Positions 11,501 through 29,403 of a DNA stretch of 64,000 nt are shown piece after piece. A program made the translations under genes and the position numbers. This stretch comes from a plasmid: the sequence record NZ_CP118918.1. One strand, given 5' to 3'. The notes under the pieces were generated by a model that made no database searches, was not told where the DNA came from, and saw only the letters and a list, made by a program, of their open reading frames with translations. How positions within the stretch are numbered: the stretch's first letter is position 1; each line of letters starts with the position of its first letter.

Positions 11501-11511
11501 TCCGCCAGCAT
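5599..11511 (-). CDS. traA: MobF-family conjugative relaxase/helicase (TraA/TrwC-like), 1970 aa
   Basis: N-terminal relaxase motif IHKLTAGSGYLYLVRQVAAHD...LGDYYSSKGETPGRWGGRGLAGL. RecD-like helicase P-loop LAPAGSGKTTATAALARSW. Long Ala-rich C-terminal extension. Single uninterrupted frame. Confidence 0.85.
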   Translation of the reverse strand: MLAESSLGFVVRNRCAGQVNAGIHKLTAGSGYLYLVRQVAAHDRTHGPESLGDYYSSKGETPGRWGGRGLAGLSAGSQNWTRTDAGERLWSVAEGSEVTEDQMKALFGLGVHPNASALTKQLIAQGARKNSALTATTLGRPFRVNAGETELQQRLAEAYRDHNLSVGAHWNAAIDETVRAQMRTDIATDMFEEQHRRAPLDERELTGFIARGTRDQTTSVAGYDMTFTPVKSVSALYALCPEPIAKQIEECHRKAVQDALDFLQDQAAYTRIGAQGIAQVDTEGFITAEFLHRDTRASDPGLHTHVAISNKVRARGTDGIPRWYALDGRPLYASTVAASELYNSRLEAYLGDELGMRFAARGDAREGKREVREVVGVSRELNELWSSRRAAIDAEYAVLAKKFQAAHGREPTTPESIAMFQQATLATRDAKHEPRSLAEQRAEWRTQAVGLLGSDEAVNAMIARSLAGRTTTPAEVTAGWINARAAQVIATVSAARSTWNRTHVLAEALRVVRVTGHAGIDGIAELITDAALTEPRSIRHASSPDTDLGEPAVLRRRDGTSVYRQAGTQTYTSPEILAAERQILAAATLRDGRTVPAADVEIELLAQAAHRRELNAGQAQLVREMACRGQRVMLALAPAGSGKTTATAALARSWEGAGGTVIGLSPSASAAQLLREEIDVEVGDTLDKFNWLTDNPDISPGDPARQWYDAIDENTLIIVDEAGKAGTLALASMIAVALARGASVRLVGDDKQLSSISAGGVLRDLAHEHGAITLSQVMRFASASEAQAGLALRDGDPSGIAFYLDAQRVHVGTQAAASDMAFQAWQSDIAEDKHSLLLAPTHELVSELNDRARLHRLTELGEHATGIEAVLMAGARASVGDLVFTKHNDRTLALGATDFVRNGYRWEVTEVDPDGSITVTHLESHAHLRLPAAYVRSHVTLGYARTIDATQGATARYRCHTVGSDQLTRQQVYTALTRGVHGNHIYFSTAEHDPHRVLSPKATHPDTAVDVLTRALARDAAQVSATSAARAATDPAARLAAATQMYAHAVGTAAESRLSPAQHAELDSHAEKLVPGLTTATAWPVLRQHLALIAAAGIHPLKRLDKVVASGGFDNAADPAAVIDWRLDPTGAHSGGAGPLPWLPAIPERLAADPQWHTYLAARAQRVTDLAAEVTATARQWSAATAPRWARPLVGTDLELAAELAVYRAATAVEDNDTRIAGAEQYPARTRAAQRGLEQRAAELIGADATTNRYDTLIDSINPHIRHDPYWPQLAHHLAAAARTGVNITQLVRTVAAERPLPDELPAAALWWRLCGTLTPAVLETANGGLRPDWLPDLHTVFGTELAETIAADPAFPALVSAIGNADPDQWTPRDLLHVAAEHLYDADAHLTHHLRPDEYARLLTYSIEVFTTADPYDHDIPLPDTAPLTPEEHEELAHLHPDIENTPPGRQHAHDDVLADPNNLAAALGLDDYDLTEPTAPDDQLPPPEHADDYFTPDTGIDFDSLSTVRPSPAAALAAHRADVHALRDRYAAADAQVRALAAHVTAGGGPHVLAATDELRRMRAAADADRPFLARVEAVLDQWHHAETTYAEALELIGHARTELDTLRADPDADPLDIASATQHLNFLTSYQLPPTSPAEQFHPAFDEATAARAAAAGGSEHIVTHADADALLRRCRADDDTLLARHRADRAALRDQLHRAELAAAQAFARAQRSTAEHITELLPRIDTELRVLDAAGQHAFQERLPISEHPDIDTDRLRRLTDAPFVLTAAHASDRAALLPMMKHLERAAHDAQRPLIWAAPATICDNADLSPIANTVIDAATLDLHDSAPGTIVVIDRAEHISPETIADLTETAATAHARIILLDTNTATWPPPPAAPLLKLLHTELRWSPVLTAATGRINHFDASPDSNAALTQAAGLHPDHHTPAITTALQRHRKAQQRNTTAHDLHTRMWNAAHRDEGFSRGG

Positions 11512-11696
11512 CCGAACGGGCCGTGACCAAACCGTGACCTAAGTGCAAGAGGTGTGTGGGACCAAGCCAGGCTGGAAAGCAACGATGCAGGTCAACAGGG
11601 GTGAGACGGTGGTGAGGGTGAAATCAGGGGTGAGTGGGTGGCTGCGGAAGAAGGGAAGCGTGATTGCGTCGTAAGGGATGGCTAGCATCCGGAAAC

Positions 11697-14435: not shown

Positions 14436-15977
14436 TCAGGTGGTGACGGTGGCGGGTTCGCCGGTCAGCGTTTCCACGACGAGTCCGACGAGATCGCGGG
14501 CGGCTGGTGGGGTGACGGCGTTGCCTGCCAGGCGGACTTGCTCTCGTCGGGTGCCGAGCATGCGGTAGTCGGTGGGGAAGTCCATCGCGGCGGTGATTTC
14601 GCGGGGCTCCAGCATCCGGAAGAACACGTCGTTGATGTCGATGTGCTGTGGCGGTGCGGGGGCGGGTCCGCTGGTGATCAGGCTGTGGCGCTCGACGGTG
14701 GTGACGGTGGGCAGGGCTTCGTTGGCAGGGGTGCTGCCGCCTTTGCCGTAGTAGCTCGTGATCAGGGGGCGGGGCTCGGTGGGGTTCCAGCGTCCGTGGA
14801 ACACGTCGCCGCGTGTGACGGGGGTGTAGACCAGGCCGTGGTGGTTGCCGGATGCGGTGACCGTCGAGAGTGCTTCGGTGGTGCAGCGGGCATCGCTGGA
14901 GCCGCCGCGGAGTTCGGCGATGAAGGGCGCGAAGGCGATGCCGTCGTTCTCGCGGGTGGTTCGGGTGGCGATGGGTTGATCGACGGCGACAGCTTCGTTG
15001 CGCCAGGTGCCTCCGGTCGGGACCAGCAGCGCGGTCTCGCTGCGCGTGGTCATGGTGCGTGTCGGCTGGTCGACCGGGGCGGCGTTCTTGCCGTCGCGTC
15101 CTTCGACGGGTACCAGCATGGGCTGCCAGTAGCGCTGGATTCCGGCGGCGATGCGGGCCATGGTCTTGTCGGCCAGGGGGCGGGTGCGCTCACCGATGCG
15201 TGTGCCGGTCAGTGACCAGTCGATGATGTCGGCGGCCGGGCGGTAGGTCGGCTCGATCACCTGGTTGCGGCACGCGACGTTGGGGCAGCGGTAGACGTAC
15301 TGGGCGCGGTACTTACCCCACGGTGCGCGGTCGGTGCGCTTGAAGCTCTGGACGGCGCGGACCGGTCCGCAGGCGGGGCACACCGCGTAGGGGGACACGA
15401 TCCGCTTGACGTCGGGGCGGGGATCGCCTGCGCGGGTGAAGATCGCATAGAACCGGTCTCTCGACTGGGGGGCGCCGCGACCGAGCAGTTGCGCATGCAT
15501 TGAGTTCAGGTAGACCATCTGGCCGACGTAGCCGATGGATTCCATTGCCATGCGCCACGCCTGGAAGGGCGGCCAGAACACCACGTCGACCACGTTCTCC
15601 ACGATCACGGCGCGGTACATGTGGTACTCGGAGAAGCGCACGACATCCCACATGGTGGCGCGGGAGCGCTCGGCGGCGGCCTCGGGGAGAATCTCGCCGA
15701 ACAGATCCGGTTGGGCGTCTTGACGTTTGCGGCCCTGGGCGATGCTGTGCTTGGTGCAGCTCGGGCTGGCCCACAGCAGATCAGTGGTGGGGAACAGACG
15801 CGGGTCAATCTGGGAGAGGTCGGCCTGAATGTGGTCGGTGTCAGGGTGATTGGCGCTGTGGGTTTCGATGGCCCTGTCCCAGTGGTTACTGGCGACCCTG
15901 GCCACGACGTTGTTGATCATCACAGCACCAGCCGTGGAGCCTCCAGCGCCGCAGTAGAGGTCGGTGATCGTCAGCAT
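14436..15977 (-). CDS. DNA (cytosine-5)-methyltransferase with unusual motif IV (PSCT instead of PCQ) and a Cys4 insertion
   Basis: Motif I DLYCGAGG, motif IV LWASPSCTKHSIAQG, motif VI VIVENVVDV, motif VIII QSRDRFYAIFTR, C-terminal GNAVTPPAARDL. Insertion CPACGP...CPNVAC. SD GAGAGGA 7 nt upstream of the ATG. Confidence 0.85.
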   Translation of the reverse strand: MLTITDLYCGAGGSTAGAVMINNVVARVASNHWDRAIETHSANHPDTDHIQADLSQIDPRLFPTTDLLWASPSCTKHSIAQGRKRQDAQPDLFGEILPEAAAERSRATMWDVVRFSEYHMYRAVIVENVVDVVFWPPFQAWRMAMESIGYVGQMVYLNSMHAQLLGRGAPQSRDRFYAIFTRAGDPRPDVKRIVSPYAVCPACGPVRAVQSFKRTDRAPWGKYRAQYVYRCPNVACRNQVIEPTYRPAADIIDWSLTGTRIGERTRPLADKTMARIAAGIQRYWQPMLVPVEGRDGKNAAPVDQPTRTMTTRSETALLVPTGGTWRNEAVAVDQPIATRTTRENDGIAFAPFIAELRGGSSDARCTTEALSTVTASGNHHGLVYTPVTRGDVFHGRWNPTEPRPLITSYYGKGGSTPANEALPTVTTVERHSLITSGPAPAPPQHIDINDVFFRMLEPREITAAMDFPTDYRMLGTRREQVRLAGNAVTPPAARDLVGLVVETLTGEPATVTT

Positions 15978-15995: not shown

Positions 15996-16048
15996 ATGGG
16001 TGATGGCTATAGCCTACCACAGAATGGATGGTGATAGCCATCCAATAT
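15996..16048 (-). promoter_or_regulatory. conserved promoter/operator element (motif family 1) upstream of the C5-MTase gene
   Basis: In transcript orientation: ATATTGGATGGCTATCACCATCCATTCTGTGGTAGGCTATAGCCATCACCC. Contains an extended -10 like TGGTAGGCT and the palindrome GGCTATAGCC. About 45 bp are shared with 23731-23775. Confidence 0.6.
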
Positions 16049-16061
16049 GTGGGGCTTGTGG

Positions 16062-16610
16062 TTAGGTCAGCTGGTCAAATAGGTCGAGCTGAGCGTCGGC
16101 ACCGAGGTCGAGAACGCGGCGCAGCAGGGCGTCGGCCTGTTCGTGCATCTCTGTGGTGCGGCGGTAATGCTCGCGGTCTTCCTCGTCCGTGGGGTGGTAG
16201 CGAGAGCATGGTCGGCTGTGTGCGTTGGGGGGCGTGCGGGCGTGGGGGCAGCGGCACCACTGCCATGTGCGGTGCTGCTCGGCTCGGGTCGCGGTCAGCA
16301 GGTCAGCTATCTGGCTGCGCAGCGCGGTTGGCAGGGCCTGTCCGAGTCGTTGAATCTGAGTGGCGGTGACCGTGGCACGCGGGGGGCCGGAGCCGGGGCG
16401 GGGGCTGATGAACTTTGATCCGACGGTCCAGTAGCTGGTCATCCAGTCGGGTGCGCCGTGGGGGGCGGTCGGGCCGCTGGCGCCGCCTGCGCGGGCCAGC
16501 AGGGATCGCAGTGCGCGTTCCTCGAGGAATGCGTCCAGGAGGGCACTGCCTGATGATCTGCCGACGAACGCCAGGAGGTGGCGTTGGTCGGGTGTCAGCG
16601 TGGGGCGCAT
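16062..16610 (-). CDS. hypothetical protein (ORF extends to 16736 but would overlap nrdH; internal start MRPTLTPDQRH more likely)
   Basis: Protein-like frame with no recognisable motif. Confidence 0.35.
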   Translation of the reverse strand: MRPTLTPDQRHLLAFVGRSSGSALLDAFLEERALRSLLARAGGASGPTAPHGAPDWMTSYWTVGSKFISPRPGSGPPRATVTATQIQRLGQALPTALRSQIADLLTATRAEQHRTWQWCRCPHARTPPNAHSRPCSRYHPTDEEDREHYRRTTEMHEQADALLRRVLDLGADAQLDLFDQLT

Positions 16611-16644
16611 GCGCACAGCCTGACGAGGCAGTGCCGGTGGGCGC

Positions 16645-16911
16645 TCATGCGGGCATCGCTGTTGCATCGGGTGCGGATACCGCAGGGTTGCCGGCGGCCT
16701 TGATGCGGTCGGGTCGGAAGCCGCTCCAGTGATCATCGCCGGCTACCACGACGGGGGCTTGCAGGTAGCCCAGGGCCATCACGTAGTCGCGGGCCTCGGC
16801 ATCGACGCTGATGTCGACTTTCGCGTAGGTGATCCCCGCTTTGTCGAGCGCCTTGAAAGTCGCGGTGCACTGCACGCAGTTGGGCTTGGTGTACACGGTG
16901 AAGGTGGACAT
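16645..16911 (-). CDS. nrdH: NrdH-redoxin, copy 2 (aa 5-68 identical to copy 1, different C-terminal tail)
   Basis: MSTFTVYTKPNCVQCTATFKALDKAGITYAKVDISVDAEARDYVMALGYLQAPVVVAGDDHWSGFRPDRI. Confidence 0.8.
   Translation of the reverse strand: MSTFTVYTKPNCVQCTATFKALDKAGITYAKVDISVDAEARDYVMALGYLQAPVVVAGDDHWSGFRPDRIKAAGNPAVSAPDATAMPA
16698..16896. repeat. inverted repeat arm 2 (nrdH copy)
   Basis: Reverse complement matches 2392-2590 with a few mismatches. Confidence 0.8.
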
Positions 16912-16930
16912 AACGCGCCTGCCTTTCTAA

Positions 16931-16951
16931 GTGGATGGCTATAGCCTACCA
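16931..16951 (-). promoter_or_regulatory. motif family 1 instance upstream of nrdH copy 2
   Basis: GTGGATGGCTATAGCCTACCA. In transcript orientation AATGGTAGGCTATAGCCATCCAC, 25 nt upstream of the ATG. Confidence 0.55.
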
Positions 16952-17487
16952 TTAAAGCTAGGGCAAGTCAACGGGAAAACGGCCCTGAACTGGACCATTC
17001 GCGACACCTAAGGCCGCGACAGGCTCGACGCGAGCAGGCATGCGATGTCCGTGTCCTTCTTCTATCCAGGCGTAGTTCTACTGACGCGGGCACGGCTGAG
17101 GCCGGACGGATCGTAGGAAACAGCGGGAGGGGGCCCTGAGTGCATGACCGGCCAGTCCGGACATCGCGAACCTCGTGGGCCGCCGCAGGGGCCACCGCCT
17201 GCCGGCAGGTCGCGGTCTCTACATCCATCGTGATCAACAGATGATGGTCCAGGTTCCGACCTAAAACTGCCGGCCGGCCGGCAGCGTCTGTGAAATCGGT
17301 GGGATTCTGCAAGGCCGGTTATTTTTCGAAAGCGTTGGTAGGTGCTCCATCCCTAAGGTGTTTGCGGCCCGCCCCTGAGAGAGGGGCTAACTACGACGCA
17401 TCCGTCGCCACAGTGCGGTGCGTATGCCGAGCCTCTCGGTCGTCCCAGCACAGAAAGCTCGAATACCTATATGAGGGTACAGATTTG

Positions 17488-18456
17488 ATGTTCCCACGTG
17501 TTCTCGCCGTCGTGGCCAGCGCACTGCTGACACTATTGCTGGCCGGCTGCACAGGCGACTCTGCAACGCCCAGCAATGAGCGTGGCGTCCCGGCCGCGCC
17601 ACGGCCATCGGGCCCTGCTGGACATTCCGTGGACACCGTGACCCTGCAATTTTGCGGCCACAACCTTGATCCCAGTTGCACGCCGGGCAGCTATGTCGGG
17701 CCGTTCGTGTCGCTGACCCCCAACGGCGGGCATTGGGACGCCAACGGTAACCCCGTCAACGGAGGCCCGGTCGGCGCTGACGGTTCCACCGGCAACAACC
17801 TCACCCAGGAGTACTGCGCCCGCAACCAAGACCCCGCCTGCCCGATCGGCACTTTCGTTGCACCCAACGCGATCAAGAATCCCGACGGAAGCCACACCTA
17901 CGTCGTCTGTGAGGGCACCATCTGCACCAACCCCAACCACGGCGGCGGTGATCCACCAGGGTATTGGGACGCCAACGGTAACCCCCTCAACGGAGGCCCA
18001 GCCGGCGCTGACGGTTCCACCGGCAACAACCTCACCCACGACTACTGCGCCCGCAACCAAGACCCCGCCTGCCCGACCGGCACCTACGTCGCACCCAACG
18101 CGATCAAGAACCCCGACGGCACCAACAGCTACGTCGTCTGCGACGGCACCATCTGCACCAACCCCAACCACGGCGGCGGCGACGACTGTGACGGCACCAT
18201 CTGCACCAACCCCAACCACGGCGGCGGCGATACACCCGACACTGACACCACTCCCGGCGACGACTCCATCGACACCGACGAACCCAGCGATGCCGGCACA
18301 AATGACACCGGAGACACCGACCCGCCACCTGATTCCGACGATGGCCCCGCATTCGACGACACCCCGGAAAGCTCCAACGACGATGGTGTCATCGACGACA
18401 CACCACCGGATTTCGACGACAGCACCGACACCGGCAGCTTCGACGACGGAAACTAG
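17488..18456 (+). CDS. secreted lipoprotein with two ~77-aa tandem Cys-containing repeats, a partial third repeat and a poly-acidic D/T-rich tail
   Basis: Signal peptide plus lipobox MFPRVLAVVASALLTLLLAGCTG. Repeat unit WDANGNP.NGGP.GADGSTGNNLT..YCARNQDPACP.GT.VAPNAIKNPDG...YVVC.GTICTNPNHGGGD. C-terminal DTDTTPGDDSIDTDEPSD... Confidence 0.7.
   Translation: MFPRVLAVVASALLTLLLAGCTGDSATPSNERGVPAAPRPSGPAGHSVDTVTLQFCGHNLDPSCTPGSYVGPFVSLTPNGGHWDANGNPVNGGPVGADGSTGNNLTQEYCARNQDPACPIGTFVAPNAIKNPDGSHTYVVCEGTICTNPNHGGGDPPGYWDANGNPLNGGPAGADGSTGNNLTHDYCARNQDPACPTGTYVAPNAIKNPDGTNSYVVCDGTICTNPNHGGGDDCDGTICTNPNHGGGDTPDTDTTPGDDSIDTDEPSDAGTNDTGDTDPPPDSDDGPAFDDTPESSNDDGVIDDTPPDFDDSTDTGSFDDGN
17730..18231 (+). 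repeat. in-frame tandem DNA repeat: two ~231-bp units plus a 48-bp partial unit
   Basis: Units 17730-17952 and 17953-18183 are ~90% identical. Partial third unit 18184-18231. Coding repeats, not CRISPR-like. Confidence 0.75.
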
Positions 18457-18501
18457 ATGCGTGTGACGTGCTCGCGCAACGAGCAGCCTATTCGCTAGGC
18501 G

Positions 18502-19263
18502 CTATGCCCCTGCAGACAGAGTGCGGTAGCTGGTCGGGCTCATACCGACGCGTCGCTTGAACGTGGTGGAGAAGTGGCTTGGCGTGGAGAATCCCAGTGC
18601 AGCGGCGATCTCGGTGATGGTTACCGAACTCGCCGATAGCATCTCCCGTGCTCGCGCGATGCGTTGCTCGATTAGATACTGGTGCGGGGTTGTACCGAAG
18701 GCGGCTGTGAATGCTGGCAGGAACGTACTCGGTGTCATGTCCACGAGGTCGGCCAACCTGTTCAGATCGATACGATGGTCCAGTTCGGTGTGCAGGTAGT
18801 CGATAACGATCTGCTGATCGTGGATTTCCATGCTGCGTTTGGGTTGGGCGAGACGCCGACGTACATCGGTCGCGGGGTACAGGTCGGCTATGTGCATCTG
18901 CATCGTCTGGGCCAGCGACTGCCGGAACAGCTGTGCTGCTGCACCCTCTTGAAGGGCCTGGCTGGCTAGGCGGTCCACCAGGCGGTGCAGCAGCGTGTCC
19001 GCGTGGCCGACACGAGGGTTGACATCCCTTCCTCCGAAAATAGCTGTGGGGACGGTGATTTCGCAGAATCCAACTGTAGACCCACGTGCCAGCGCGGCGT
19101 AGCGCCGCTCGGCCGGGATCACCCACACGTCGCCCACACGCGGAAGGCAGGGGCCCGACGGCCCGTCCTCGAACTCGATTTCCATCGACGCAAGATCCCC
19201 GCGGCGGTGCACGACGAACACGTGGTGAGGTTCCTGGAAGCACCAGTCGGTGGGCGCAGTCAC
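18502..19263 (-). CDS. AraC-family transcriptional regulator
   Basis: C-terminal HTH_18: LADLVDMTPSTFLPAFTAAFGTTPHQYLIEQRIARAREML...ITEIAAALGFSTPSHFSTTFKRRVGMSPTSYR. Confidence 0.8.
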   Translation of the reverse strand: MTAPTDWCFQEPHHVFVVHRRGDLASMEIEFEDGPSGPCLPRVGDVWVIPAERRYAALARGSTVGFCEITVPTAIFGGRDVNPRVGHADTLLHRLVDRLASQALQEGAAAQLFRQSLAQTMQMHIADLYPATDVRRRLAQPKRSMEIHDQQIVIDYLHTELDHRIDLNRLADLVDMTPSTFLPAFTAAFGTTPHQYLIEQRIARAREMLSASSVTITEIAAALGFSTPSHFSTTFKRRVGMSPTSYRTLSAGA

Positions 19264-19515
19264 CCGTTCGGCGACGAACCGGAAGTCCAGCCCTTGAACT
19301 GCAGGGTGCGCGCCGACACCACACTGCGATCAGAGCGCTTGCGGTGCCCATCCCAAACCTGCGTCCGTCCTGAACCGCGCATTTCGAAAGTCTCCAGTTT
19401 TTCGAAGCAACCTGGCGATTAGGCCACGATAGCGGCCCCCGCCGCAGGTCGATCCGCGGTCTCGGATGATCGCAGGTCGGCTTCCCGGATTCACCTATCT
19501 GGCCAGTGCCTACGG

Positions 19516-20265
19516 CTAGAGGCTGAGGCCGTGGCTGGGCGGAGCGAGAGACTTGGCCCACCGGCGTTCTTGGTCAGTGACCTGTTCTGTTGAGCGAGGT
19601 TCTACGGTGTCCAGCAGCAGCGCTGTGAGGCGGCCGTACTGCCCGGTGCTGTGCCCGTGGTAGCGGGCGCCGATGAACTCTTCCCGACGTGCGAGGAGCT
19701 GCACGCCATCGAGGGCGTAGCCGTATTTGCGGCATACGGTGGCCATCAGCATGGTTTGGCTGCGCGTGTTGCCTTCACGAAAGGGATGGACCTGATCGAG
19801 TTGCCCCCAGTGCCGGGCTATCGTCGGGATAAACGATTGTGGGGCAAGGTTTGCGGGGTCACTCAATGCGTGCTGGAGTTGGGCAAACACAGCAGTGGCC
19901 TGCTCCTCTACGAGACGCCCCGCTGGGTAGCGGTAGGTGACCCATGGAGCGGACCGGTCGTCGGGGGCGAAATTGACGACATCGCGCCACTGCTTTGCCA
20001 TCGCGTTCTCCGGAACAACTCGCGTTGTTCCGGCCCACGCGTACACGTCCTGGAAGATGCGGTGGTGCACGCGGCGGTAGTAATCGAGGTCGACGGTCTC
20101 GGGAAGCGCGGAGTGGTCATCGAGGATGATGCCGCGCATGCGCGGCGCGACGGCATGCGCTTCGGCAACCGCTAGGTCGGGGTAGCTCTTGATGCCGAAT
20201 TTGTTCTTGAGCACGCCTGGCGCATCAGGCCAGAAGTAGCTATCCCACGTGTCGTAGGACGTCAC
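19516..20265 (-). CDS. Fic family protein (class I FicT-like)
   Basis: Fic motif HPFREGNTRSQTM (HPFxxGN.R). Confidence 0.75.
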   Translation of the reverse strand: MTSYDTWDSYFWPDAPGVLKNKFGIKSYPDLAVAEAHAVAPRMRGIILDDHSALPETVDLDYYRRVHHRIFQDVYAWAGTTRVVPENAMAKQWRDVVNFAPDDRSAPWVTYRYPAGRLVEEQATAVFAQLQHALSDPANLAPQSFIPTIARHWGQLDQVHPFREGNTRSQTMLMATVCRKYGYALDGVQLLARREEFIGARYHGHSTGQYGRLTALLLDTVEPRSTEQVTDQERRWAKSLAPPSHGLSL

Positions 20266-20477
20266 CTGTCCCTGAATCCCGGCTGTGTGAAGCGCGCGAC
20301 CACCTCAGCGGCGGCCTGGTCTTCGTTGAGTTCACCACGGTCCATGCGGGCCAGGAGGTCGCGAACAGAGTCGCTGTCGGGGAACCCGGCGAGGCCGGCG
20401 GCGGCGATGGCCAGAGATGATGCTTCCTCTGGGGTGTAGGTCACCGGTCGGCGCTGGAGCTGGCTCATGAGAGGCAT
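20262..20477 (-). CDS. small protein upstream of and overlapping fic; putative FicA/VbhA-like antitoxin, though the (S/T)xxxE(G/N) motif is not evident
   Basis: 71-aa ORF with a 4-nt overlap with the Fic start; arrangement typical of FicTA modules. Confidence 0.4.
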   Translation of the reverse strand: MPLMSQLQRRPVTYTPEEASSLAIAAAGLAGFPDSDSVRDLLARMDRGELNEDQAAAEVVARFTQPGFRDR

Positions 20478-20784
20478 TGTAGTTTCTTTCGTTCGATGGG
20501 TTGCGTCAACGGAAAACGTGGGGTGCAGGTTCTGCGAGGCAGTCCACCCTGGAGTAGGCGGGGTATCGAGGCGACCCTTAGCCCGGCCTACCTTCCAGAA
20601 GTGAGCCCAGCAGCGGCATGGGTCGCCGCCCCCATGCCCGCTGGCGTGAGCGTGTAGGCGATAGGTACGTCGCAGTGGTCCTCGTTGAGGCTGTAGGCGA
20701 TCGGGGAGTCAACAGAAGCGCTGGAGTTCATGCGGGGCATCACCTCTCGTGTAGGAGATAGGGCTCACCGCCATAAGTGGCGGC

Positions 20785-20820
20785 TGTCTATAGCCTATCA
20801 GCAATGGTAGGCTATAGACA
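20785..20820 (+). promoter_or_regulatory. motif family 1 instance upstream of the PP-loop gene, with a perfect 13-bp inverted repeat
   Basis: TGTCTATAGCCTATCAGCAATGGTAGGCTATAGACA. SD GGAGAG follows before the ATG at 20845. Confidence 0.6.
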
Positions 20821-20844
20821 CCCTCACGGAGAGTTTGCCTACGA

Positions 20845-22032
20845 ATGAATGTCTGTGCCACAACAGAATTGGAACTGTCCGGCCTACACGGTTCGCGTCC
20901 ACCGTCGGTAGTGGTGTCCTACGGCCTCGGCCTCGATTCAACGTGCCTGCTGCTGCGGTGGCTGCGGGAACCCTCAACCCGCGACTTCGCCGTGGAGGAC
21001 ATGGTGGTGGTCACGGCGATGGTGGGAGACGAGTTCAGCTCTACTACGGTTGCGGTGGAGTCACTGATGCTGCCGCTGTTCCGAGAGTTTGGCGTTCGCT
21101 ACGTCCAGTGCGCCCGCGGTCAGCGGGTTACGACGGCGGCTGGCGAAGGTGTTGTCGTGCTGGATGACTCGACGTATCCGCAGAAACTGTACGCGGAGGG
21201 CGCATACCGGCTGTCCGACGAGATGCTGTCTGCTGGCACGCTGCCACAGCTCGGGGGAGCACGGAAGTGCAGCATGCATGCCAAAGGGTGGGCTTTGGAC
21301 CCGGTGATTGCCAAACTCACGGCAGGGCAACCATATCGGCATGCCATTGGGTTCGAATTGGGTGAGCAGGGCCGGGCTGAAAAGGACCGCCGGTACAACA
21401 CCACACAGCGCACCGGTTGGTATCCGTTGATAGAGGCTGGCTTTGACCGACAAGCCTGTCATGACTACGTGTCCGCGAACCTTGGTGTGGCGTGGGAAAA
21501 GTCGTGCTGTTCGTACTGCGTTTTCGCCCTGACGAGTGCACGTGGGCGCGCCGGGATGGTGGAGCGGTACCGTCAGGAGCCGGCGGCCGGGGCGCGGGCG
21601 ATGCTCATCGAAGCGACAGCTCGGCGGCTCAACGCACGTCAGACGTTGATAGCGGGTAGCAGTGTGGCGCAGATGGTCCGAGAGGCGGGCTTGACCGCGG
21701 TTGAAGACGAGTTCCGGCGGGTCTTCGCCGAGTCGGGTTTCGCAGTGTACGACGTCCGTCGTGTCACACCGGCGGGCGTGGGCGGTCGGCGGGGTGTGAC
21801 GGCGCGGTCTGTCCGCAGGCTCGCTACTGGGTCCGAGGGCGCCATGGACGCATACCTTGCGGGTAGCCCAGGGCAGAGGGCGGTGGGGGCTGACCGCATT
21901 GTCCGGCATCACCTACCTGCTGGGCCGGGGTGCGAGCATTTCCGGGTGGTTGCCCCCGCCGTGGTAGAGGATAAGCAGCGCAAAGGATTTGATCGCATAT
22001 GGGCTAACGCCAATAGCCCTTCGCTATTCTGA
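20845..22032 (+). CDS. PP-loop ATP-pyrophosphatase superfamily protein (PAPS-reductase/QueC-like) with C-terminal Cys cluster
   Basis: PP-loop VVVSYGLGLDSTCLLLRWL (SxGxDS). Cys cluster CHDYVSANLGVAWEKSCCSYCVF. Confidence 0.5.
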   Translation: MNVCATTELELSGLHGSRPPSVVVSYGLGLDSTCLLLRWLREPSTRDFAVEDMVVVTAMVGDEFSSTTVAVESLMLPLFREFGVRYVQCARGQRVTTAAGEGVVVLDDSTYPQKLYAEGAYRLSDEMLSAGTLPQLGGARKCSMHAKGWALDPVIAKLTAGQPYRHAIGFELGEQGRAEKDRRYNTTQRTGWYPLIEAGFDRQACHDYVSANLGVAWEKSCCSYCVFALTSARGRAGMVERYRQEPAAGARAMLIEATARRLNARQTLIAGSSVAQMVREAGLTAVEDEFRRVFAESGFAVYDVRRVTPAGVGGRRGVTARSVRRLATGSEGAMDAYLAGSPGQRAVGADRIVRHHLPAGPGCEHFRVVAPAVVEDKQRKGFDRIWANANSPSLF

Positions 22033-22180
22033 GCAGGTAGCAGTGTGCCTGCGCGGTCGAGTCCCCCGTCGGCCAGAGATCGCGGGCGCACTGCTATCCC
22101 CCTGTCGAACTGACCGGAGATAGTGGCGCAGCGGCGTAGTGGCGGCGAGCGGGAATTCAGATTCTACGAAGTCGTGGTGG

Positions 22181-22606
22181 TTAGTTGCTGCGCAGAATGT
22201 CGGTGACGCGGTGTTGCACAGCGGTCCAGTCCTCGGGTGGGAGCGCGGCGATGCCCGCGGTCCATCCGGCATTGGGGTCGATGTGATGGCGCAGCTCGGT
22301 GAAGCAGGCGATCTGGGGCAGCGCTCCAGTAGCGCTGAGGGTGCGGATACGGGCTACCACGTCGTGGGCGTGGCGGTCGATGTGGAGCCAGTAGGTCGCC
22401 GGGCGATGGGTGACAGCAGCCAGGTCGTCGTGTCGCACGTGGTGCCAGCTCAGGTAGGTCAGACCGTTGGTGAGTCGTACGCGTGCGACGGGGTGTCGAT
22501 CGTCGACGCTGACGGCGTGGAACGGTCGGACGGCCGCCACGTAGGGGGCTGGGGTGGTGGGTGACTGGGCGTTTCGGTCTGGTGGGGGAGAGTCGAACGG
22601 GTCCAT
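22181..22606 (-). CDS. hypothetical protein
   Basis: 141-aa protein-like ORF with no motif. Confidence 0.4.
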   Translation of the reverse strand: MDPFDSPPPDRNAQSPTTPAPYVAAVRPFHAVSVDDRHPVARVRLTNGLTYLSWHHVRHDDLAAVTHRPATYWLHIDRHAHDVVARIRTLSATGALPQIACFTELRHHIDPNAGWTAGIAALPPEDWTAVQHRVTDILRSN

Positions 22607-22639
22607 TGCAGTGGTGCCCTCCCTGGAGTCGCGGGCGGG

Positions 22640-22981
22640 TTAGGAGTCTTGCGCTGGCGTGGCCATGGCCTGCTCGATGCCTCTGGTGAGCGCAGCGACG
22701 GTGGTCTGCAATGGGGGCGCGATCTTTGCCAGAAAGACCACGGTGGGTGTACGTTCGCCGGCTTCCACGCCACGCAGGAAGATACGGTCGACGCTGGCCT
22801 GGTCGCTGAGGGCGCGTTGAGACAAGCCCAGGGTCTCGCGGCGCTGGGCGATGTTGCGGCCGACGACCGGCATGATGCGTGCCAGCAGCGCGCGGTCGGC
22901 CTGCGCTTGCAGCTCACGGGCGGCCAGACCGGCGCGCTTGCGTTCCTCAGCAGTGGTGGTCACGGCTTTGGTCGGGGACAT
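22640..22981 (-). CDS. XRE-family HTH transcriptional regulator
   Basis: GRNIAQRRETLGLSQRALSDQASVDRIFLRGVEAGERTPTVVFLAKIA. Likely start MSPTKAV. Confidence 0.65.
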   Translation of the reverse strand: MSPTKAVTTTAEERKRAGLAARELQAQADRALLARIMPVVGRNIAQRRETLGLSQRALSDQASVDRIFLRGVEAGERTPTVVFLAKIAPPLQTTVAALTRGIEQAMATPAQDS

Positions 22982-23092
22982 GGGCGGCGGTCCTTTCACG
23001 TGCGGTATCACCACCGCGACTTCTTGCCGATAGCGTACTCGCGGTGGTGGGTGAAAGGCTACCAACGGGCGCGGGTGGGTCACCGTGCTGAC

Positions 23093-23674
23093 TTATCCTT
23101 GGCTGGCGGGTTCTACCGCGGGTGCTGTGTCGTCACGGACCGGGAATGGGCTGGCTTGCAACGGTGCTCGGTCATACGCTGGTGCGTATCGACCGTCACG
23201 GTCGTAGCCCCAGACATCGAATCCGTGCTCGTCAAATCGGTGGATTGCCGCCGCACCAGCGCACGTCATTTCGGCGCGGCAGGCCAAGCCGTTGCGATCG
23301 ACCCATTCGAGGTCAGGGCTGGTCTCGGAGATCACCCAGTTAACGAGGGCTGTCTCGTCGGCCTCCAGCGGCCTGGACCGGGCGTCAGCCTCTCCGAGAT
23401 ACCAGTGAGTGCGGTCCTGCAATTGCCGGTCATGCTGACGGTCACCGTGGGCCTCGATGGCTGCGCGTTTCGTGGTGTAGCGGGTAGCGGTTCGTGGTGT
23501 CCCGTGCACGTCGACTATGGCCCAGCAGCGGTCGGACTTCTTGGCTACGGTCCACGTCGTGGGCAGGTTGTCCAGGTGGTCTCGCAGCGACCTTTCGAAC
23601 GCGTCGAGCTGGCTGGCGCGGAGGCGGGCGTGGCGGGCATCCGCGTGTTCGGCCGGGGGCGGCTGAGTGTCCAT
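23093..23674 (-). CDS. hypothetical protein
   Basis: 193-aa ORF preceded by a motif family 1 promoter. Confidence 0.5.
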   Translation of the reverse strand: MDTQPPPAEHADARHARLRASQLDAFERSLRDHLDNLPTTWTVAKKSDRCWAIVDVHGTPRTATRYTTKRAAIEAHGDRQHDRQLQDRTHWYLGEADARSRPLEADETALVNWVISETSPDLEWVDRNGLACRAEMTCAGAAAIHRFDEHGFDVWGYDRDGRYAPAYDRAPLQASPFPVRDDTAPAVEPASQG

Positions 23675-23730
23675 GGAGCGCAGTCCTTTCCTCGGATGCT
23701 GTGGGGTATCGACAGCTTTCGCTATGCGGA

Positions 23731-23775
23731 TTGCTATAGCCTACCACAAATGTGGATGGTTATAGCCGTCCAATA
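23731..23775 (-). promoter_or_regulatory. motif family 1 instance (long form) upstream of 23093..23674
   Basis: TGCTATAGCCTACCACAAATGTGGATGGTTATAGCCGTCCAATAT, near-identical to 16005-16047. Confidence 0.6.
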
Positions 23776-24464: not shown

Positions 24465-24818
24465 TCAGCGGCACGTGATACACCGGCGGTGGTCCTCGGA
24501 TGGCTGGCAGTCATCGCCCCACTCGCCCTCGTTGTGCAACCCCTCCATGCGGTCTGCGCATCCCCCGCAACACCCGGCCCAGCCCTGCCCGTCATCAAGG
24601 GATTCGCGACACCCTTCATCGAACGGGTCGCGGCACGCAGCATCGTCGTCACTTATGTCGAATCCGTCGAAGATCGTTGCTATGGCATCAGGTATCGATG
24701 AATGAGGGATCGCCGCAGAAAGGCGTTCGAGCTGACCTGACGTGAGCCGGAAACCTGCCCAGTCGTCGGCTTGTTCAGGGGAAATCAATTGCAGGGCCAC
24801 TACATCCGTTGTGCTCAT
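24465..24818 (-). CDS. Cys-rich acidic hypothetical protein
   Basis: 117 aa with CRDPFDEGC...CCGGCADR...CITCR. Start codon abuts the motif family 2 promoter. Confidence 0.45.
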   Translation of the reverse strand: MSTTDVVALQLISPEQADDWAGFRLTSGQLERLSAAIPHSSIPDAIATIFDGFDISDDDAACRDPFDEGCRESLDDGQGWAGCCGGCADRMEGLHNEGEWGDDCQPSEDHRRCITCR

Positions 24819-24822
24819 AGCA

Positions 24823-25388: not shown

Positions 25389-26234
25389 TCAGGAGTGGCT
25401 TGACCACCAGGTGTAGAGCTGTTCCAGGCTTGGTTTTTGGGGTGTGTCGGCTCGGATTGTTGCCAGGAGGAGCGTCGATGTGGTGGTCCAGGCGACCATC
25501 GGTTGACTGTCCTGGTTGGTGCCGCACAGCAGGGTTCCGGCGACGGTTTCGGGGTTGGCGTTGCGGCGCCACGCACCCGGGGACTGGTAGCCGCCGTCGG
25601 CCCCTGGGCACACCTTCGCGGTGGTGGAGGCGGTGACGTCGGCAAATGCGGCATCGAGGTCCGCGGTGGCGTCATAGAGCGTGTAGTGCGCGGTCGTTGC
25701 CTCGGCGATGGCGGGGTGTGGCCCGCAACGCACGCCAGCGATGGCCGGTGGCGGCTCAGTGGTCGCAGTGCAGTCCGAGGGTCGATATCCAGGTGGCAGG
25801 TTGTGGCGCAGCAGTTCCGCCGCGGCCGTCGTGGTGTCGGCGGCGGCGGCCGGGGAGTTCGTGGCCTCCGGCGGGTCTGGTGAGGGCCACAGCAGGATCG
25901 CCCACAGCACGACCGCGATGGTCGCGACAACGGCGAAGATGGACCACAGAATCACCAGGGGCCGCTGCATACGCGGTGGGCGCCGGATCGGTGTGATCGC
26001 GATTGTTTGGTCGACGCTCGCGCCCAGGTCCGATTTCTGGGAGCTGACGGACTGGTCGCGGGCGGCACCGCTGGCAGCCAGGTCCGTGGCCGGCGGCGGA
26101 TACGGGTGTGGGGCATCGGCGGCAGACCAGGTGAAGAACCCCGTGAGTTCGGGAAGTGGACCTGTGGGCGGGTCGTCGGAGGTGGGTGTCATGAGGGCTC
26201 GATTCGGTGGGCGTGAGTGCCAGCTTCCACGCAT
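25389..26234 (-). CDS. membrane-anchored protein with possible PknH-like extracytoplasmic sensor domain (4 Cys)
   Basis: TM segment LVILWSIFAVVATIAVVLWAILLW. C-terminal domain with CTATTEPP...RCGP...VCPGADGGY...LLCGTNQ. Confidence 0.4.
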   Translation of the reverse strand: MRGSWHSRPPNRALMTPTSDDPPTGPLPELTGFFTWSAADAPHPYPPPATDLAASGAARDQSVSSQKSDLGASVDQTIAITPIRRPPRMQRPLVILWSIFAVVATIAVVLWAILLWPSPDPPEATNSPAAAADTTTAAAELLRHNLPPGYRPSDCTATTEPPPAIAGVRCGPHPAIAEATTAHYTLYDATADLDAAFADVTASTTAKVCPGADGGYQSPGAWRRNANPETVAGTLLCGTNQDSQPMVAWTTTSTLLLATIRADTPQKPSLEQLYTWWSSHS

Positions 26235-27958
26235 GCTCGCTTGAGGAGATCGGCCACGTCCGTGTCGCCGCGCCGACCAAGGATGTCCTCGGGGCTTGAC
26301 TTCGGGTTGTCCAGTGCGGCGGTCATGGCAGCGTTCGGGTCTCGGGTATCGCGGCCGGTGAATTGGGCGAGCTGTTCGGTGGCCGGTGCGCTCGTGTCGA
26401 GCGTGGCGATCGTGTACGTGCGGCGGTGTGTGTTGAAGGCGATGATCAGCGTGCCCCCGACGGCGGCGTTGAGCTGTTGGGCGTGGGTGCGCAGCGAGCC
26501 GATGCGTGCGTTGTTGCTCGCGTTGGTCACCCAGGTGACGGTGATAGGGCTGTGGTCGGGGTTGGTGAAGCTCTGGTGTCCACCGAGGGTGATGTGCGCG
26601 GCCCGCGCGACGGACACGGCAATGCTGCGTCCGGATCCGCGTTGCAGTTCCGGGGTGACGGGGAGGGCAAGCCGGATGACGTGGGTATTGGTGCGATACA
26701 TACCCCGGGCCTGGTTGAGGGGTCTGCTTGCCGGGGCGGGGTCGGCGGCGGTGCGCCGGCGGCTGTAGCCATTTCGGGTGATGTATCGAGGTGTGGCGAG
26801 GTAGGTGCGCAGCGATCGTGCGCTGATGTCGGGGTATGGGGTGTGAAGGTCTTTGAGGAGCTCAGTGGTGCGGACGCTCCCTCCATGGTCATCGATGTAG
26901 GTGGCGATGGCATCGTTGATGCTGGTGTACTCGGGCAGCTTCCATGTACGCAGCGCCCAGGTGGTGCGGCTGGCCCGTGCGAACTCCTTGTGGTCTGAGA
27001 GCGCGGTGGCCACCGATCCGGGTGAGACGGCAAGGCCGATATCGGCGCGAACCTCTTCGATGGTCAGTGGCCGTTGGTGTGCGTGCAGGACCGCCGCCGC
27101 CATCGTGGCTGTGGTTGCGGCGGTGTGGGTGATGCGTTGGTCCGCGATGGTGGTGTGGCGGTAGGTCTCGGTGAGGTAGGTGTCGATCGCGTCAGGGTGC
27201 ATCCCCGCGGCCGCCAAGACCGTCGTGAGTTCGGTCGTCCGCAGCGCTCCCGCACCCGCGGTCAGTGCGTGTTCGGCGGTGGTGTCGACGTGTTCGCGGC
27301 CGCGTGTCCCGGTGTTTTCGAGCCAGTGGAGGCGGCGACGGTAGGGACCGGCGGTATGCAGCAGTAACGCTGCGGTGTCGCAGGTCAGTGTCTGACCGGT
27401 CTGGGCGAGTTCAGCGGCGGCCACCTGGGCCGGTAGATAGGGGCCCAGGCGCTGGGCGATCCGCTGGGCGTGACGGTGCAGGGCCTCGTGTTCGGGGTGG
27501 GCGAGCAGGCCAACCAGTTTGCGCTCGGCGCGGCGGGTCCCGCGCGACACGCTGGCTTTGGCGCAGCCGAGCATCGCTGCCACCTGGGCGGTGGGCTTCG
27601 GGTCTAGCGGGAGGACGCGGGTAGTGAGGATGGTGCGGGTCTCGGCGTCGAGCTGGTCGAGTAGCTTGGCGGCGGCGCCGGCGGCGGTGGTGTCTGGGTG
27701 GCTCGCTGTTGTGCTACGGATTGCGCGACGGGCCGTGTCGATGATCGCGGTGAGGGCGCTGAGGCCGATGCCTGGTTGTGCGGTAAGGCTTTTCGAGGTG
27801 TGCGCGCCGATATCTCGCCAGTAGGGATATACCTCGCTGTAGGCGGCCAGGCGTGGTGGGAGCTGGCTGTACGGGATCAGTTGGTCAGCGATCCCGTCGA
27901 AGTCCTCAATCAGCTCGCCCAGCGGGCGCGACGAGGCTTCGACTATGGGTTCGATCAT
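26189..27958 (-). CDS. hypothetical 589-aa protein with sigma-region-4-like HTH
   Basis: TAQVAAMLGCAKASVSRGTRRAERKLVGLL resembles a sigma70 region 4.2 HTH. Confidence 0.5.
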   Translation of the reverse strand: MIEPIVEASSRPLGELIEDFDGIADQLIPYSQLPPRLAAYSEVYPYWRDIGAHTSKSLTAQPGIGLSALTAIIDTARRAIRSTTASHPDTTAAGAAAKLLDQLDAETRTILTTRVLPLDPKPTAQVAAMLGCAKASVSRGTRRAERKLVGLLAHPEHEALHRHAQRIAQRLGPYLPAQVAAAELAQTGQTLTCDTAALLLHTAGPYRRRLHWLENTGTRGREHVDTTAEHALTAGAGALRTTELTTVLAAAGMHPDAIDTYLTETYRHTTIADQRITHTAATTATMAAAVLHAHQRPLTIEEVRADIGLAVSPGSVATALSDHKEFARASRTTWALRTWKLPEYTSINDAIATYIDDHGGSVRTTELLKDLHTPYPDISARSLRTYLATPRYITRNGYSRRRTAADPAPASRPLNQARGMYRTNTHVIRLALPVTPELQRGSGRSIAVSVARAAHITLGGHQSFTNPDHSPITVTWVTNASNNARIGSLRTHAQQLNAAVGGTLIIAFNTHRRTYTIATLDTSAPATEQLAQFTGRDTRDPNAAMTAALDNPKSSPEDILGRRGDTDVADLLKRACVEAGTHAHRIEPS

Positions 27959-29399: not shown

Positions 29400-29403
29400 A
29401 GCT

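Follow-up and report, generated by a model that had tools for sequence, protein, structure and literature searches.

What kind of signal recurs in front of several genes of a plasmid, and what might it control? In a 64,000-nucleotide stretch of NZ_CP118918.1 (the window), an initial annotation had noticed a promoter-like element upstream of four genes and proposed that it makes them one regulon. Here, we consider it probable that these elements are the promoters of an auto-repressed XRE regulon of putative establishment genes, with a SigA-type extended -10 set inside a dyad operator and a transient burst of expression in recipients.

All four instances described initially are present, and each holds an exact copy of the 13-mer TGGTAGGCTATAG. 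The A or T said to precede its TGG was an error: the bases found there are G, A, A and G. When up to two mismatches are allowed, TGGTAGGCTATAG has six matches in the 64-kb window (0.16 expected), a number reached by none of 100 shuffled sequences. The repeated unit is a 20-bp dyad, TGGWWGGCTATAGCCWWCCA, with the consensus TGGWWGGCTA|TAGCCWWCCA, also written TGG(A/T)(T/A)GGCTA|TAGCC(A/T)(T/A)CCA. Seven copies with four mismatches or fewer occur in the window, against 0.1 expected in block shuffles, and a degenerate eighth (23045-23064) completes a set of eight boxes in five intergenic regions. All eight are intergenic and point toward genes, and three of the five regions carry paired boxes, 24-26 bp apart. 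The idea of an embedded palindromic operator is supported, though its size would be 20 bp and not the 10 bp of GGCTATAGCC. Likewise, the MTase and 23674 sites do have about 45 bp in common, and the extra upstream element is there; it is a complete second 20-bp palindrome rather than a half-site. At 20.8 kb, the reported 13-bp inverted repeat (TGTCTATAGCCTA-N10-TAGGCTATAGACA) is correct and the instance is real, but it consists of two back-to-back promoters instead of a single one.

Table 1. Coordinates of boxes, predicted promoters and genes in the window, and of boxes before XRE genes in relatives.
Feature	Position	Strand	Remarks
Exact 13-mer TGGTAGGCTATAG	16007-16019(-), 16939-16951(-), 20805-20817(+), 23734-23746(-)
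Fifth core copy, TGATAGGCTATAG	20788-20800		one mismatch; strand opposite to the 20805-20817 copy
MTase promoter-proximal box	16000..16019	-	reads TGGTAGGCTATAGCCATCAC on the - strand
MTase extended -10	TGG 16019-16017, TAGGCT 16016-16011	-	MTase ATG at 15977
MTase distal box, TGGATGGTGATAGCCATCCA	16025..16044		7-bp perfect dyad arm; no -10-like element; covers the -35 region
nrdH box, single	16932..16951	-	dyad consensus matched perfectly
nrdH predicted promoter	-35 TTGACT 16971-16966, TGG 16951-16949, -10 TAGGCT 16948-16943		17-nt spacer; ATG 16911
Divergent pair, left box	20781..20800	-	predicted leftward promoter TGATAGGCT
Divergent pair, right box	20805..20824	+	predicted rightward promoter TGGTAGGCT for the PP-loop-like gene 20845..22032
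Degenerate box directly 5' of the XRE gene	23045..23064	-	reads TGGTAGCCTTTCACCCACCA; extended -10 TGGTAGCCT
XRE-operon promoter-proximal box	23727..23746	-	precedes 23093..23674 / XRE / 22181..22606
XRE-operon distal box, TGGATGGTTATAGCCGTCCA	23753..23772
Boxes before XRE genes	window 23045-64 and 23727-72; L002 30423-42; L124 2394-2413; L126 19838-57; L128 19942-61
MobF (TrwC/TraI-type) relaxase	5599..11511	-	1970 aa; marks a conjugative-plasmid context
Candidate nic core of oriT	11543..11558	+	+ strand reads GTGCAAGAGGTGTGTG
C5 DNA cytosine methyltransferase	14436..15977	-	basis: orthologues annotated DNA cytosine methyltransferase
nrdH operon	16062..16911	-	nrdH 16645..16911 (glutaredoxin Pfam domain); 182-aa protein 16062..16610
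VbhA-like antitoxin and Fic toxin	20262..20477 and 19516..20265	-	downstream of the leftward promoter
Conserved 395-aa protein	20845..22032	+	PP-loop-like SYGLGLDS motif
XRE operon	22181..23674	-	193-aa protein (23093..23674), XRE gene, 141-aa protein (22181..22606)
XRE-family (HTH_3) protein, candidate repressor	22640..22981	-	113 aa

One half of each promoter-proximal box is the extended -10 promoter TGGTAGGCT, that is, a TAnnnT with TGn directly upstream, as in mycobacterial SigA extended -10 promoters. In M. smegmatis, SigA prefers TAnnnT as its -10, and this hexamer goes along with higher expression (PMC6448022). The variants in the window are TGG-TAGGCT (four sites), TGA-TAGGCT (one) and TGG-TAGCCT (one), with TGG lying 40-42 nt from the start codon at three promoters and 69-83 nt at the other three. 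Among 38 unique contexts from relatives with a recognisable Shine-Dalgarno, 34 have the motif 35-49 nt before the start codon. At the nrdH site (TTGACT-17-TAGGCT), TTGAC is kept in five relatives while the flanks diverge. The motif match and the spacing to start codons support the earlier claim that TGnTAnnnT marks mycobacterial promoters at these sites, which we treat as predicted promoters. A scan for E. coli-type promoters gave no match at these sites because TAGGCT fits TATAAT at only three of six positions. The boxes share TGnTAnnnT with SigA extended -10 promoters, but here the NNN and the next six bases are also fixed (TAGGCTATAGCC) and run into the dyad. This conservation beyond the -10 is not a promoter requirement.

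The proposed regulon of the MTase, nrdH, the PP-loop-like gene and the 23093..23674 gene is supported, although its membership was incomplete: the VbhA-Fic and XRE operons have to be added. The leftward promoter of the divergent pair, TGATAGGCT, faces a small ORF (ATG ~20731), followed by the VbhA-like gene and then the Fic gene. The 395-aa PP-loop-like protein found no family match in domain-family searches. The XRE protein carries HTH_3 (PF01381; 27.1 bits against a cut-off of 23, E=4.3e-6), and a longer, 147-aa ORF for it starting at 23083 is probably too long.

Nine contigs from PLSDB or genomes and nine from metagenomes show the same arrangement, all of them from Mycobacterium-type MOBF plasmids. 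Profiled over 20 loci (49 unique promoter contexts), positions within the box carry 1.4-2.0 bits of information; the distal box carries a moderate amount, and the sequence farther out about none. The boxes are short, palindromic and repeated, as a MITE-like dispersed repeat without regulatory function would be, and such a repeat could lie between genes by chance. We find this scarcely credible. There are only eight boxes in the 64 kb and seven in the complete 114-kb plasmid pSMC-8_2 (six of them in the region beside mobF and one outside), all promoter-proximal and at a constant distance upstream of genes, where a dispersed repeat would be numerous and placed without regard to genes. The boxes belong to no larger shared unit bounded by terminal repeats, and similarity falls to background within about 45 bp. 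Among the 120 matches listed in a 14-mer genome search, only two are mycobacterial, and both are homologous plasmid regions. An 18-mer metagenome search returned 14 matches, nine of which are high-GC relatives with 1-8 boxes each, and none in viral contigs. The motif is kept in relatives of the plasmid, a point on which the initial annotation had called for a check in plasmids or phages.

A different question is whether the dyad means anything beyond the promoter. The boxes may instead form a strong constitutive promoter cassette, spread by recombination and with no dedicated regulator; the dyad would then be a relic of bidirectional promoters, and its downstream half a conserved 5'-UTR. In favour of this, the promoter half TGGTAGGCT is the most invariant part across contexts, and divergent sites are predicted to use both halves as promoters. 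Against it, the distal boxes (16025-16044, 23753-23772 and their orthologues) are well-formed palindromes that lack TAnnnT in both orientations, so the dyad symmetry is not explained by the promoter alone. Their spacing is also fixed: across relatives, the start-to-start distance of adjacent boxes is 24 bp in 20 cases and 25 bp in 12. Moreover, the non-promoter half-site is constant within lineages and shifted between them, and the putative regulator gene is itself preceded by boxes. Altogether, we regard an unregulated cassette as quite unlikely.

If the boxes are operators, which protein binds them? XRE homologues adjoin boxes in all four lineages (identities of 96%, 95%, ~50%, 53% and 55%), and each lineage has a box directly 5' of its XRE homologue; the degenerate box of the window is kept in L125 and L123. 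The promoter half is unchanged between lineages (TGGTAGnCT), and the other half reads TGGATGGCTA in the window lineage, TGG(G/A)TGGCTW in L002/L124 and TGGTTGTCTA in L126/L128. Recognition-helix residues of the XRE protein differ between lineages, in line with these half-site shifts; between lineages A and B the half-sites differ at one position and not cleanly, TGGATG being present in lineage B too. The box is absent from more distant XRE homologues (Gordonia pKB1 and M. abscessus pGD21-1). The initial annotation had named two candidate regulators, and this co-occurrence, the own-gene boxes and the shifting half-sites support the XRE protein at 22640, whereas nothing speaks for the wHTH at 2031, which lies on the opposite side of mobF with no box nearby.

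A regulator other than XRE, either another plasmid protein or a host factor, is in our view unlikely, although it deserves some weight. Candidates are the 141-aa and 193-aa partners in the XRE operon, a 589-aa protein (26189..27958) and the wHTH near 2031. In lineages A, B and C, the 141-aa gene comes after XRE, and the 589-aa protein is kept in relatives and has a Sigma70_r4 match (E=0.0024, below the curated cut-off). On the other hand, no annotated DNA-binding protein apart from XRE is shared by the box-bearing regions of all four lineages, and in the short M. lentiflavum region XRE is the sole regulator annotated among the genes with boxes beside mobF. No other candidate has a box before its own gene in every lineage, or a recognisable DNA-binding domain above threshold.

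Under the auto-repressed XRE regulon that we favour, we infer promoter activity, XRE binding, repression and transient induction as follows. The unit would be a SigA-type extended -10 (TGG-TAGGCT) set in one half of a 20-bp dyad operator, to be bound by the 113-aa XRE/HTH_3 protein of the plasmid itself, as a dimer. The dyad contains the -10 and the predicted +1 (a dyad-symmetric site over a putative core promoter), and a bound dimer would cover both. The second dyad, present 24-26 bp upstream in three of the five regions, would lie over the -35 region and make repression tighter; as this spacing is a non-integral number of helical turns, cooperative binding is not obviously favoured. An operator-like box precedes the regulator's own gene, as in autoregulated XRE/HTH_3 repressors. 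Since the XRE gene lies in a controlled operon and has a further box of its own, we propose a negative-feedback loop.

The location of the boxes suggests when such a circuit might act. All sites lie within about 12 kb of mobF and 4.5-12 kb from a nic-like block that hardly varies upstream of mobF among plasmids of Mycobacterium, Mycobacteroides and Gordonia. We used this candidate nic, compared with the F nic sequence (PMC2504302), solely to infer the leading-region side. The oriT of these plasmids is unmapped (PMC8190616), so that the term 'leading region' rests on the conserved block and on analogy; with a putative nic site, leading-region status is putative as well. By this analogy, the box region is probably the side of the plasmid that enters the recipient first. 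Of the 23 ORFs from 11.7 to 29.4 kb, about 18 lie on the - strand, with most neighbours transcribed toward mobF. In published leading regions, orphan MTases and toxin-antitoxin genes are over-represented, and the genes point such that transcription would read the transferred strand (PMC11541004). Given the candidate nic strand, the genes here would have the same orientation, and their content (a C5 MTase and VbhA-Fic) is typical of such regions, to which anti-defence genes also belong. In a repressor-free transconjugant, the regulon would fire in a burst and then be shut off as XRE accumulates. The burst would supply the MTase for self-protection, the NrdH redoxin, VbhA-Fic, the PP-loop-like protein and several uncharacterised proteins.

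The closest known system is that of ArdK in IncW R388, together with ArdK/ArdR acting on ardA and ardB in the leading region of IncN pKM101. In R388, ArdK represses five maintenance-gene promoters including its own (PardC, Porf7, Porf12, Porf14 and Pssb), with an overshoot after transfer (PMC3937220). The likeness lies in one small plasmid repressor that would act on several establishment or maintenance promoters near oriT, its own among them, with a burst after transfer, and in a repeated promoter element that precedes leading-region genes (PMC8744291). The differences are several. The host clade here is Mycobacteriales, and relatives of the plasmid carry T4SS-like and ESX/T7SS transfer genes. 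The putative operator is another one, a 20-bp dyad containing an extended -10, and the proposed regulator belongs to HTH_3. The cargo consists of a C5 MTase, NrdH, VbhA-Fic and a PP-loop-like protein; ArdA, ArdC, ssb and psiB were not seen. The relation to ArdK is one of analogy, not family membership.

Controller (C) proteins of restriction-modification systems offer a second comparison. C proteins bind two adjacent dyads over their own promoter and time the expression of methylase and nuclease in a new host. The XRE protein is weakly similar to C.AhdI, C.BclI and SinR; C.AhdI (E=2.8e-4) and C.BclI (E=6e-4), small dimeric HTH_3 proteins, are its closest natural solved relatives, and the overall top structure match is 8tac 'DBP48' (E=3.4e-5). 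Yet the box here is unrelated to the GACT...AGTC C-box, and the regulon would extend over five operons or more, not a single one. No restriction endonuclease was recognised beside the MTase, where two small downstream ORFs have no NCBIfam match. With its weak similarity, different box and no recognised endonuclease partner, a C-protein system was rejected.

Finally, the boxes could be signals on the transferred single strand, either nic-like or secondary oriT sites for MobF or hairpins of the Frpo/ssi type, which would permit priming or transcription there. The sequence at 20766-20797, a hairpin (CCGCCA-TAAG-TGGCGG) and then CTGTCT|ATAGCC, is similar to the R388 substrate GGTGCGTATTGTCT|ATAGCCC (PMC4176350), and the relaxase domain is slightly nearer pCU1 TraI and TrwC than F TraI. 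As single-stranded DNA, the divergent site folds strongly (-24 kcal/mol, z=-6.4), and the extended -10 would be double-stranded in the hairpin. However, GTCTATAGCC and its flanking hairpin are not kept at the same site in relatives (djl-10 has GGTCATAGCC and L002/L124 have GGCTTTAGCC), and a far better nic candidate adjoins mobF. We rejected an R388-type MOBF nic site (hairpin plus GTCT|ATAGC), as L123, L002 and L124 lack the resemblance at the orthologous position. The + strand folds at the five sites have z values of -2.9, +0.76, -6.4, -1.35 and -1.5, with nrdH (+0.76) and 23.7 kb (-1.35) ordinary in structure. A Frpo/ssi single-strand promoter, in which a long and stable hairpin restores the -35 and -10 elements, was rejected as well: only the divergent site is strongly structured, with a stem of 16 bp. 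Where two boxes are both near-consensus palindromes, pairing between them is automatic. Frpo itself is a stem-loop of about 330 nt (PMC8744291), against units of 20-45 bp here. A single-strand role for the boxes at large is accordingly highly improbable. What the boxes do share with the Frpo/ssi elements of F-like and IncI leading regions is a probable leading-region location, the gene orientation and presumed early expression of establishment genes; the mechanism proposed here differs, being release from repression on double-stranded DNA.

The proposed auto-repressed XRE circuit would be of an ordinary kind for plasmids, and one not described before for these plasmids. A narrower idea, which we hold to be very unlikely, is that inverted-pair operators (20785-20820 in the window; perfect 48-bp palindromes in the L002/L124 lineage) also serve as small single-strand promoters or priming signals, or that the flanking hairpin with GTCT|ATAGCC is a secondary site of the relaxase. 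The transferred strand would then fold at inverted pairs into a stem running from the extended -10 to the start site. If this were true, the hairpin pairs would fire before complementary-strand synthesis, and actinobacteria would have, made out of repressor operators, their own equivalent of Frpo.

The recurring element that the initial annotation proposed as a promoter/operator family is real, and its interpretation there is essentially right. On inspection of the sequence, the four instances lie where that annotation placed them, and the inverted repeat of 13 bp at 20.8 kb and the similarity of about 45 bp between the MTase (C5 methyltransferase) and 23.7-kb sites were correctly described. 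The 13-mer TGGTAGGCTATAG occurs six times in the window at up to two mismatches, against 0.16 expected. When both strands are read, the repeat unit is a 20-bp dyad, TGGWWGGCTA/TAGCCWWCCA (hereafter the box). The postulated palindromic operator would have this dyad as its unit, and the 'second upstream half-site' is present as a full second box. Seven boxes are found at up to four mismatches (0.1 in block-shuffled sequence), and an eighth, degenerate box directly upstream of the XRE gene is kept in relatives. Altogether, the window holds eight boxes and six predicted promoters in five regions, three of which have two boxes with starts 24-26 bp apart. The genes listed in the proposed regulon do have boxes, and the predicted set also takes in VbhA-Fic and XRE itself.

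Positions of boxes, genes and related elements (window coordinates unless a relative is named; L-numbers are sequence stretches from relatives)
Element	Position	Remarks
Box, MTase	16000-19	
Distal box, MTase	16025-44	
Box, nrdH copy 2	16932-51	perfect
Boxes, divergent 20.8-kb site	20781-800, 20805-24	
Box, 23.7-kb XRE operon	23727-46	
Distal box, XRE operon	23753-72	
Box, XRE gene	23045-64	counterparts: L002 30423-42, L124 2394-2413, L126 19838-57, L128 19942-61
Seventh box of pSMC-8_2	L130 27556-27575 (record ~96455)	TGGTAGGCTGTAGACAACCG
TGGTAGGCTATAG, exact	16007-16019(-), 16939-16951(-), 20805-20817(+), 23734-23746(-)	
TGGTAGGCTATAG, one mismatch	20788-20800	opposite strand
R388-like sequence	20766-20797	CTGTCTATAGCC
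mobF	5599..11511(-)	MobF relaxase, 1970 aa
ACACACCTCTTGCA block	11543-11558	non-coding; also L127 25351, L131 28616, L128 14248
nrdH copies 1 and 2	2362-2631; 16645-16911	
Repeat-protein ORF	17290..18456(+)	tandem repeat at 17728-18182
395-aa gene	20845..22032	L002 26340-27530
141-aa protein	22181-22606	
XRE gene	22640..22981(-)	HTH_3 protein
117-aa gene	24465..24818	upstream of thermonuclease gene
589-aa protein	26189-27958	
Second Fic gene	28713..29399	
Second promoter-like repeat	24804-24856; 29385-29437	75% identical

In transcript orientation, all promoter-proximal boxes start with TG(G/A)-TAG(G/C)CT, so that the extended -10 motif recognized in the initial annotation, TGnTAnnnT, appears in every one of them; in M. 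smegmatis, SigA prefers TAnnnT as its -10 (PMC6448022). The predicted nrdH promoter reads TTGACT-17-TAGGCT, and its TTGAC is kept in five relatives despite diverged surroundings. From TGG to the start codon there are 40-42 nt at the MTase, nrdH and PP-loop-like genes, with a Shine-Dalgarno sequence in between, and 69, 72 and 83 nt at the leftward 20.8-kb promoter, the XRE operon and XRE's own promoter, respectively. The 20.8-kb site has two back-to-back predicted promoters, the rightward facing the 395-aa gene and the leftward a small ORF, a VbhA-like antitoxin (51% identity to the annotated VbhA of p20-157661) and Fic. An E. coli-type promoter scan of 12.8-25.5 kb gave no sites, which is uninformative because TAGGCT fails its 4/6-match requirement. 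The distal MTase and XRE-operon boxes are good palindromes without any -10 and span the -35 region of the downstream promoter. That the boxes are an unregulated promoter cassette is quite unlikely, given these promoterless distal dyads and the fixed spacing.

A second, unrelated promoter-like repeat reads ...TTAACCGACTACACTAATTGCT-ATG in transcript orientation. Its TACACT -10 stands 7 nt 5' of the ATG of both the 117-aa gene and the second Fic gene, whose mRNAs are probably leaderless.

The window comes from a mycobacterial plasmid, and the records most similar to it are pSMC-8_2, pSMC-4_1, djl-10_1, p20-157661 and an M. dioxanotrophicus plasmid. Motif conservation in related plasmids, a check named in the initial annotation, bears the family out: boxes stand at orthologous promoters in all of these, as well as in pSMC-4_3, an M. 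lentiflavum plasmid, two genome contigs and nine high-GC metagenome contigs. Five low-GC metagenome matches are single chance matches. In a set of 49 unique promoter contexts drawn from 20 loci, each position of the box carries 1.4-2.0 bits of information; values are moderate for the distal box and fall to about zero outside. Adjacent boxes start 24 bp apart in 20 cases and 25 bp apart in 12, and TGG lies 35-49 nt from the start codon in 34 of 38 cases. The complete 114-kb pSMC-8_2 has seven boxes, six of them in the mobF-proximal region, and viral contigs gave no box match. The boxes are not a dispersed repeat such as the MITE that the initial annotation had considered; their copy number and position in the plasmid sequences exclude that reading, and we give it a negligible chance. 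The seventh pSMC-8_2 box, away from the mobF-proximal region, stands in a long intergenic stretch with PPE/ESX-associated genes around it, and may mark an extra regulon member there. A scan of genome contigs with the 14-mer TGGTAGGCTATAGC says little on chromosomal copies: a search space of 596 Gb should yield about 4,400 matches by chance, and at least 120 stretches matched; among the 120 listed, only L011 and L021 are real relatives. One Stappiaceae MAG has the 14-mer in at least seven separate stretches (L008, L053, L069, L073, L087, L100, L101; OZ2199xx/OZ2200xx), which suggests an unrelated repeat family there.

The candidate regulator is XRE. Among natural proteins of solved structure, those closest to it are the R-M controllers C.AhdI and C.BclI, and SinR (weak matches; the top match overall is 8tac 'DBP48'). 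Every relative has an XRE homologue within its box-bearing region, and a box stands directly before the XRE gene in four of four lineages. The promoter half stays TGGTAGnCT throughout, whereas the non-promoter half-site, tabulated from curated lists of box sequences, is TGGATGGCTA in lineage A (L001/L125 and L123; 96% and 95% identity to the window XRE), TGG(G/A)TGGCTW in lineage B (L002/L124; about 50%), and TGGTTGTCTA in lineages C (L126; 53%) and D (L128; 55%). The predicted recognition-helix residues vary as well (SVDRIFLRG, GVDRVFLRH, DVDRIWIRQ, KVDRSFMAR). This pattern fits an operator and its repressor with one half-site also constrained as a -10, but lineages A and B differ too little for it to be more than suggestive. 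We consider it unlikely that a regulator other than XRE acts on the boxes. A homology search with the XRE protein returned only five close matches and no new lineages. Box searches found none in Gordonia pKB1 or M. abscessus pGD21-1 and one in M. aubagnense, so the XRE family extends further than the recognisable box family does.

The 141-aa protein, encoded downstream of XRE in lineages A, B and C (with an inserted transposase between the two genes in L002), is a possible partner of the repressor. All close relatives also have the 589-aa protein, whose Sigma70_r4 match is weak and sub-threshold (E=0.0024).

In the mechanism we propose, the proximal dyad would bind an XRE dimer that occludes the -10 and start site, and the distal dyad a second one that spans the -35 region. 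In a repressor-free recipient the promoters would fire upon plasmid entry, and would be shut off as XRE accumulates. Since the XRE gene also lies within the operon of the dual-box 23.7-kb promoter, negative autoregulation is predicted. The proposed circuit parallels, by analogy and not family membership, R388, where ArdK represses PardC, Porf7, Porf12, Porf14 and its own Pssb with transcriptional overshoot (PMC3937220), and pKM101, where ArdK/ArdR control ardA and ardB (PMC8744291). Strong promoters under negative feedback are a well-known plasmid design, which this circuit, if real, would extend to another phylum with no new principle.

On the other hand, the boxes could be a DNA-processing signal. 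At 20766-20797 a hairpin (CCGCCA-TAAG-TGGCGG) is followed by CTGTCT/ATAGCC, resembling the R388 TrwC substrate GGTGCGTATTGTCT/ATAGCCC (PMC4176350), and, as single-stranded DNA, the divergent site forms a strong fold (z=-6.4). Yet pairing of two near-consensus palindromes is automatic, the remaining sites are unstructured (nrdH z=+0.76), and the R388-like sequence is absent at the same site in djl-10 and in the L002/L124 lineage (including p20-157661). We therefore rejected both an R388-like nic, as not conserved, and, from the folds, an Frpo-like hairpin as a general property of boxes; a processing role is very improbable. CTATAG as a methylation/restriction target is too rare to interpret (five of six window copies in boxes; about 6.5 expected overall), and an Rfam search of 11-26 kb gave only a chance miRNA match, leaving no known RNA element to explain the conservation.

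The complete relative pSMC-8_2 also has T4SS-like and ESX/T7SS genes, as conjugative plasmids of the pRAW type do (PMC4173767). In the window, metabolic cargo makes up the right half. The block ACACACCTCTTGCA, which begins some 30-45 nt upstream of mobF, is invariant in six aligned plasmids. It also stands upstream of mobF in pKB1 and pGD21-1, where the flanks are unrelated, and hardly varies among the MOBF plasmids of Mycobacterium, Mycobacteroides and Gordonia. Its complement, GTGCAAGAGGTGT/GTGG (GAGGTGT/GTGG), resembles the F nic GGGGTGT/GGTGC (PMC2504302). The block is a candidate nic/oriT for a group of plasmids in which no oriT is known (PMC8190616). As a putative MobF substrate, the candidate nic oligonucleotide is 5'-GTGCAAGAGGTGTGTGGGAC-3'. 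In F and R388 the relaxase gene enters the recipient last. If the block is nic and the same order holds, the + strand would be transferred and 11.6 kb upward would be the leading region. The box area, and with it the whole box set, probably belongs to this region. Of the 23 ORFs from 11.7 to 29.4 kb, about 18 are on the - strand, so they would have the transferred (inferred +) strand as template. The same gene orientation is seen in published leading regions, along with an enrichment of orphan methyltransferases and toxin-antitoxin genes (PMC11541004).

Several genes in and around the set deserve mention. Two motifs mark the conserved 395-aa protein, a PP-loop-like SYGLGLDS at the N-terminus and CSYCVFA; Pfam and NCBIfam gave no match for the 395-, 193-, 182-, 141- and 117-aa proteins. 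In p20-157661 the annotated start of its orthologue (26649) appears about 100 codons too short, and the ORF from 26340, just after the box promoter, shows 68% identity over the full length. Only nrdH copy 2 has a box; copy 1 lies across mobF, after a 135-aa ORF (the wHTH candidate of the initial annotation), with no box nearby. The repeat-protein ORF contains a tandem 231-nt coding repeat (92% identical) and shorter CDGTICTNPNHGGGD repeats, and its product looks like a secreted or lipoprotein-like protein.

The regulation of mycobacterial conjugative plasmids is poorly understood. The literature searched contained neither the box nor the nic-like sequence; regulation of this kind is not described in the pRAW and Mycolicibacterium mobilome papers, and neither an oriT nor an early-gene programme or plasmid repressor is defined for relatives that combine a MOBF relaxase with T4SS-like and ESX genes (PMC4173767, PMC8190616). 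A by-product of our analysis is a testable candidate nic sequence common to Mycobacterium, Mycobacteroides and Gordonia MOBF plasmids. If our reading is true, the boxes would constitute the first candidate establishment regulon of such plasmids, together with its master repressor, and a compact promoter/operator/repressor set that might serve as a tightly repressible expression tool in mycobacteria. It would also give a shortlist for the first minutes after transfer: an orphan C5 methyltransferase, NrdH, VbhA-Fic and four conserved uncharacterised proteins, the last being candidates for anti-defence roles.
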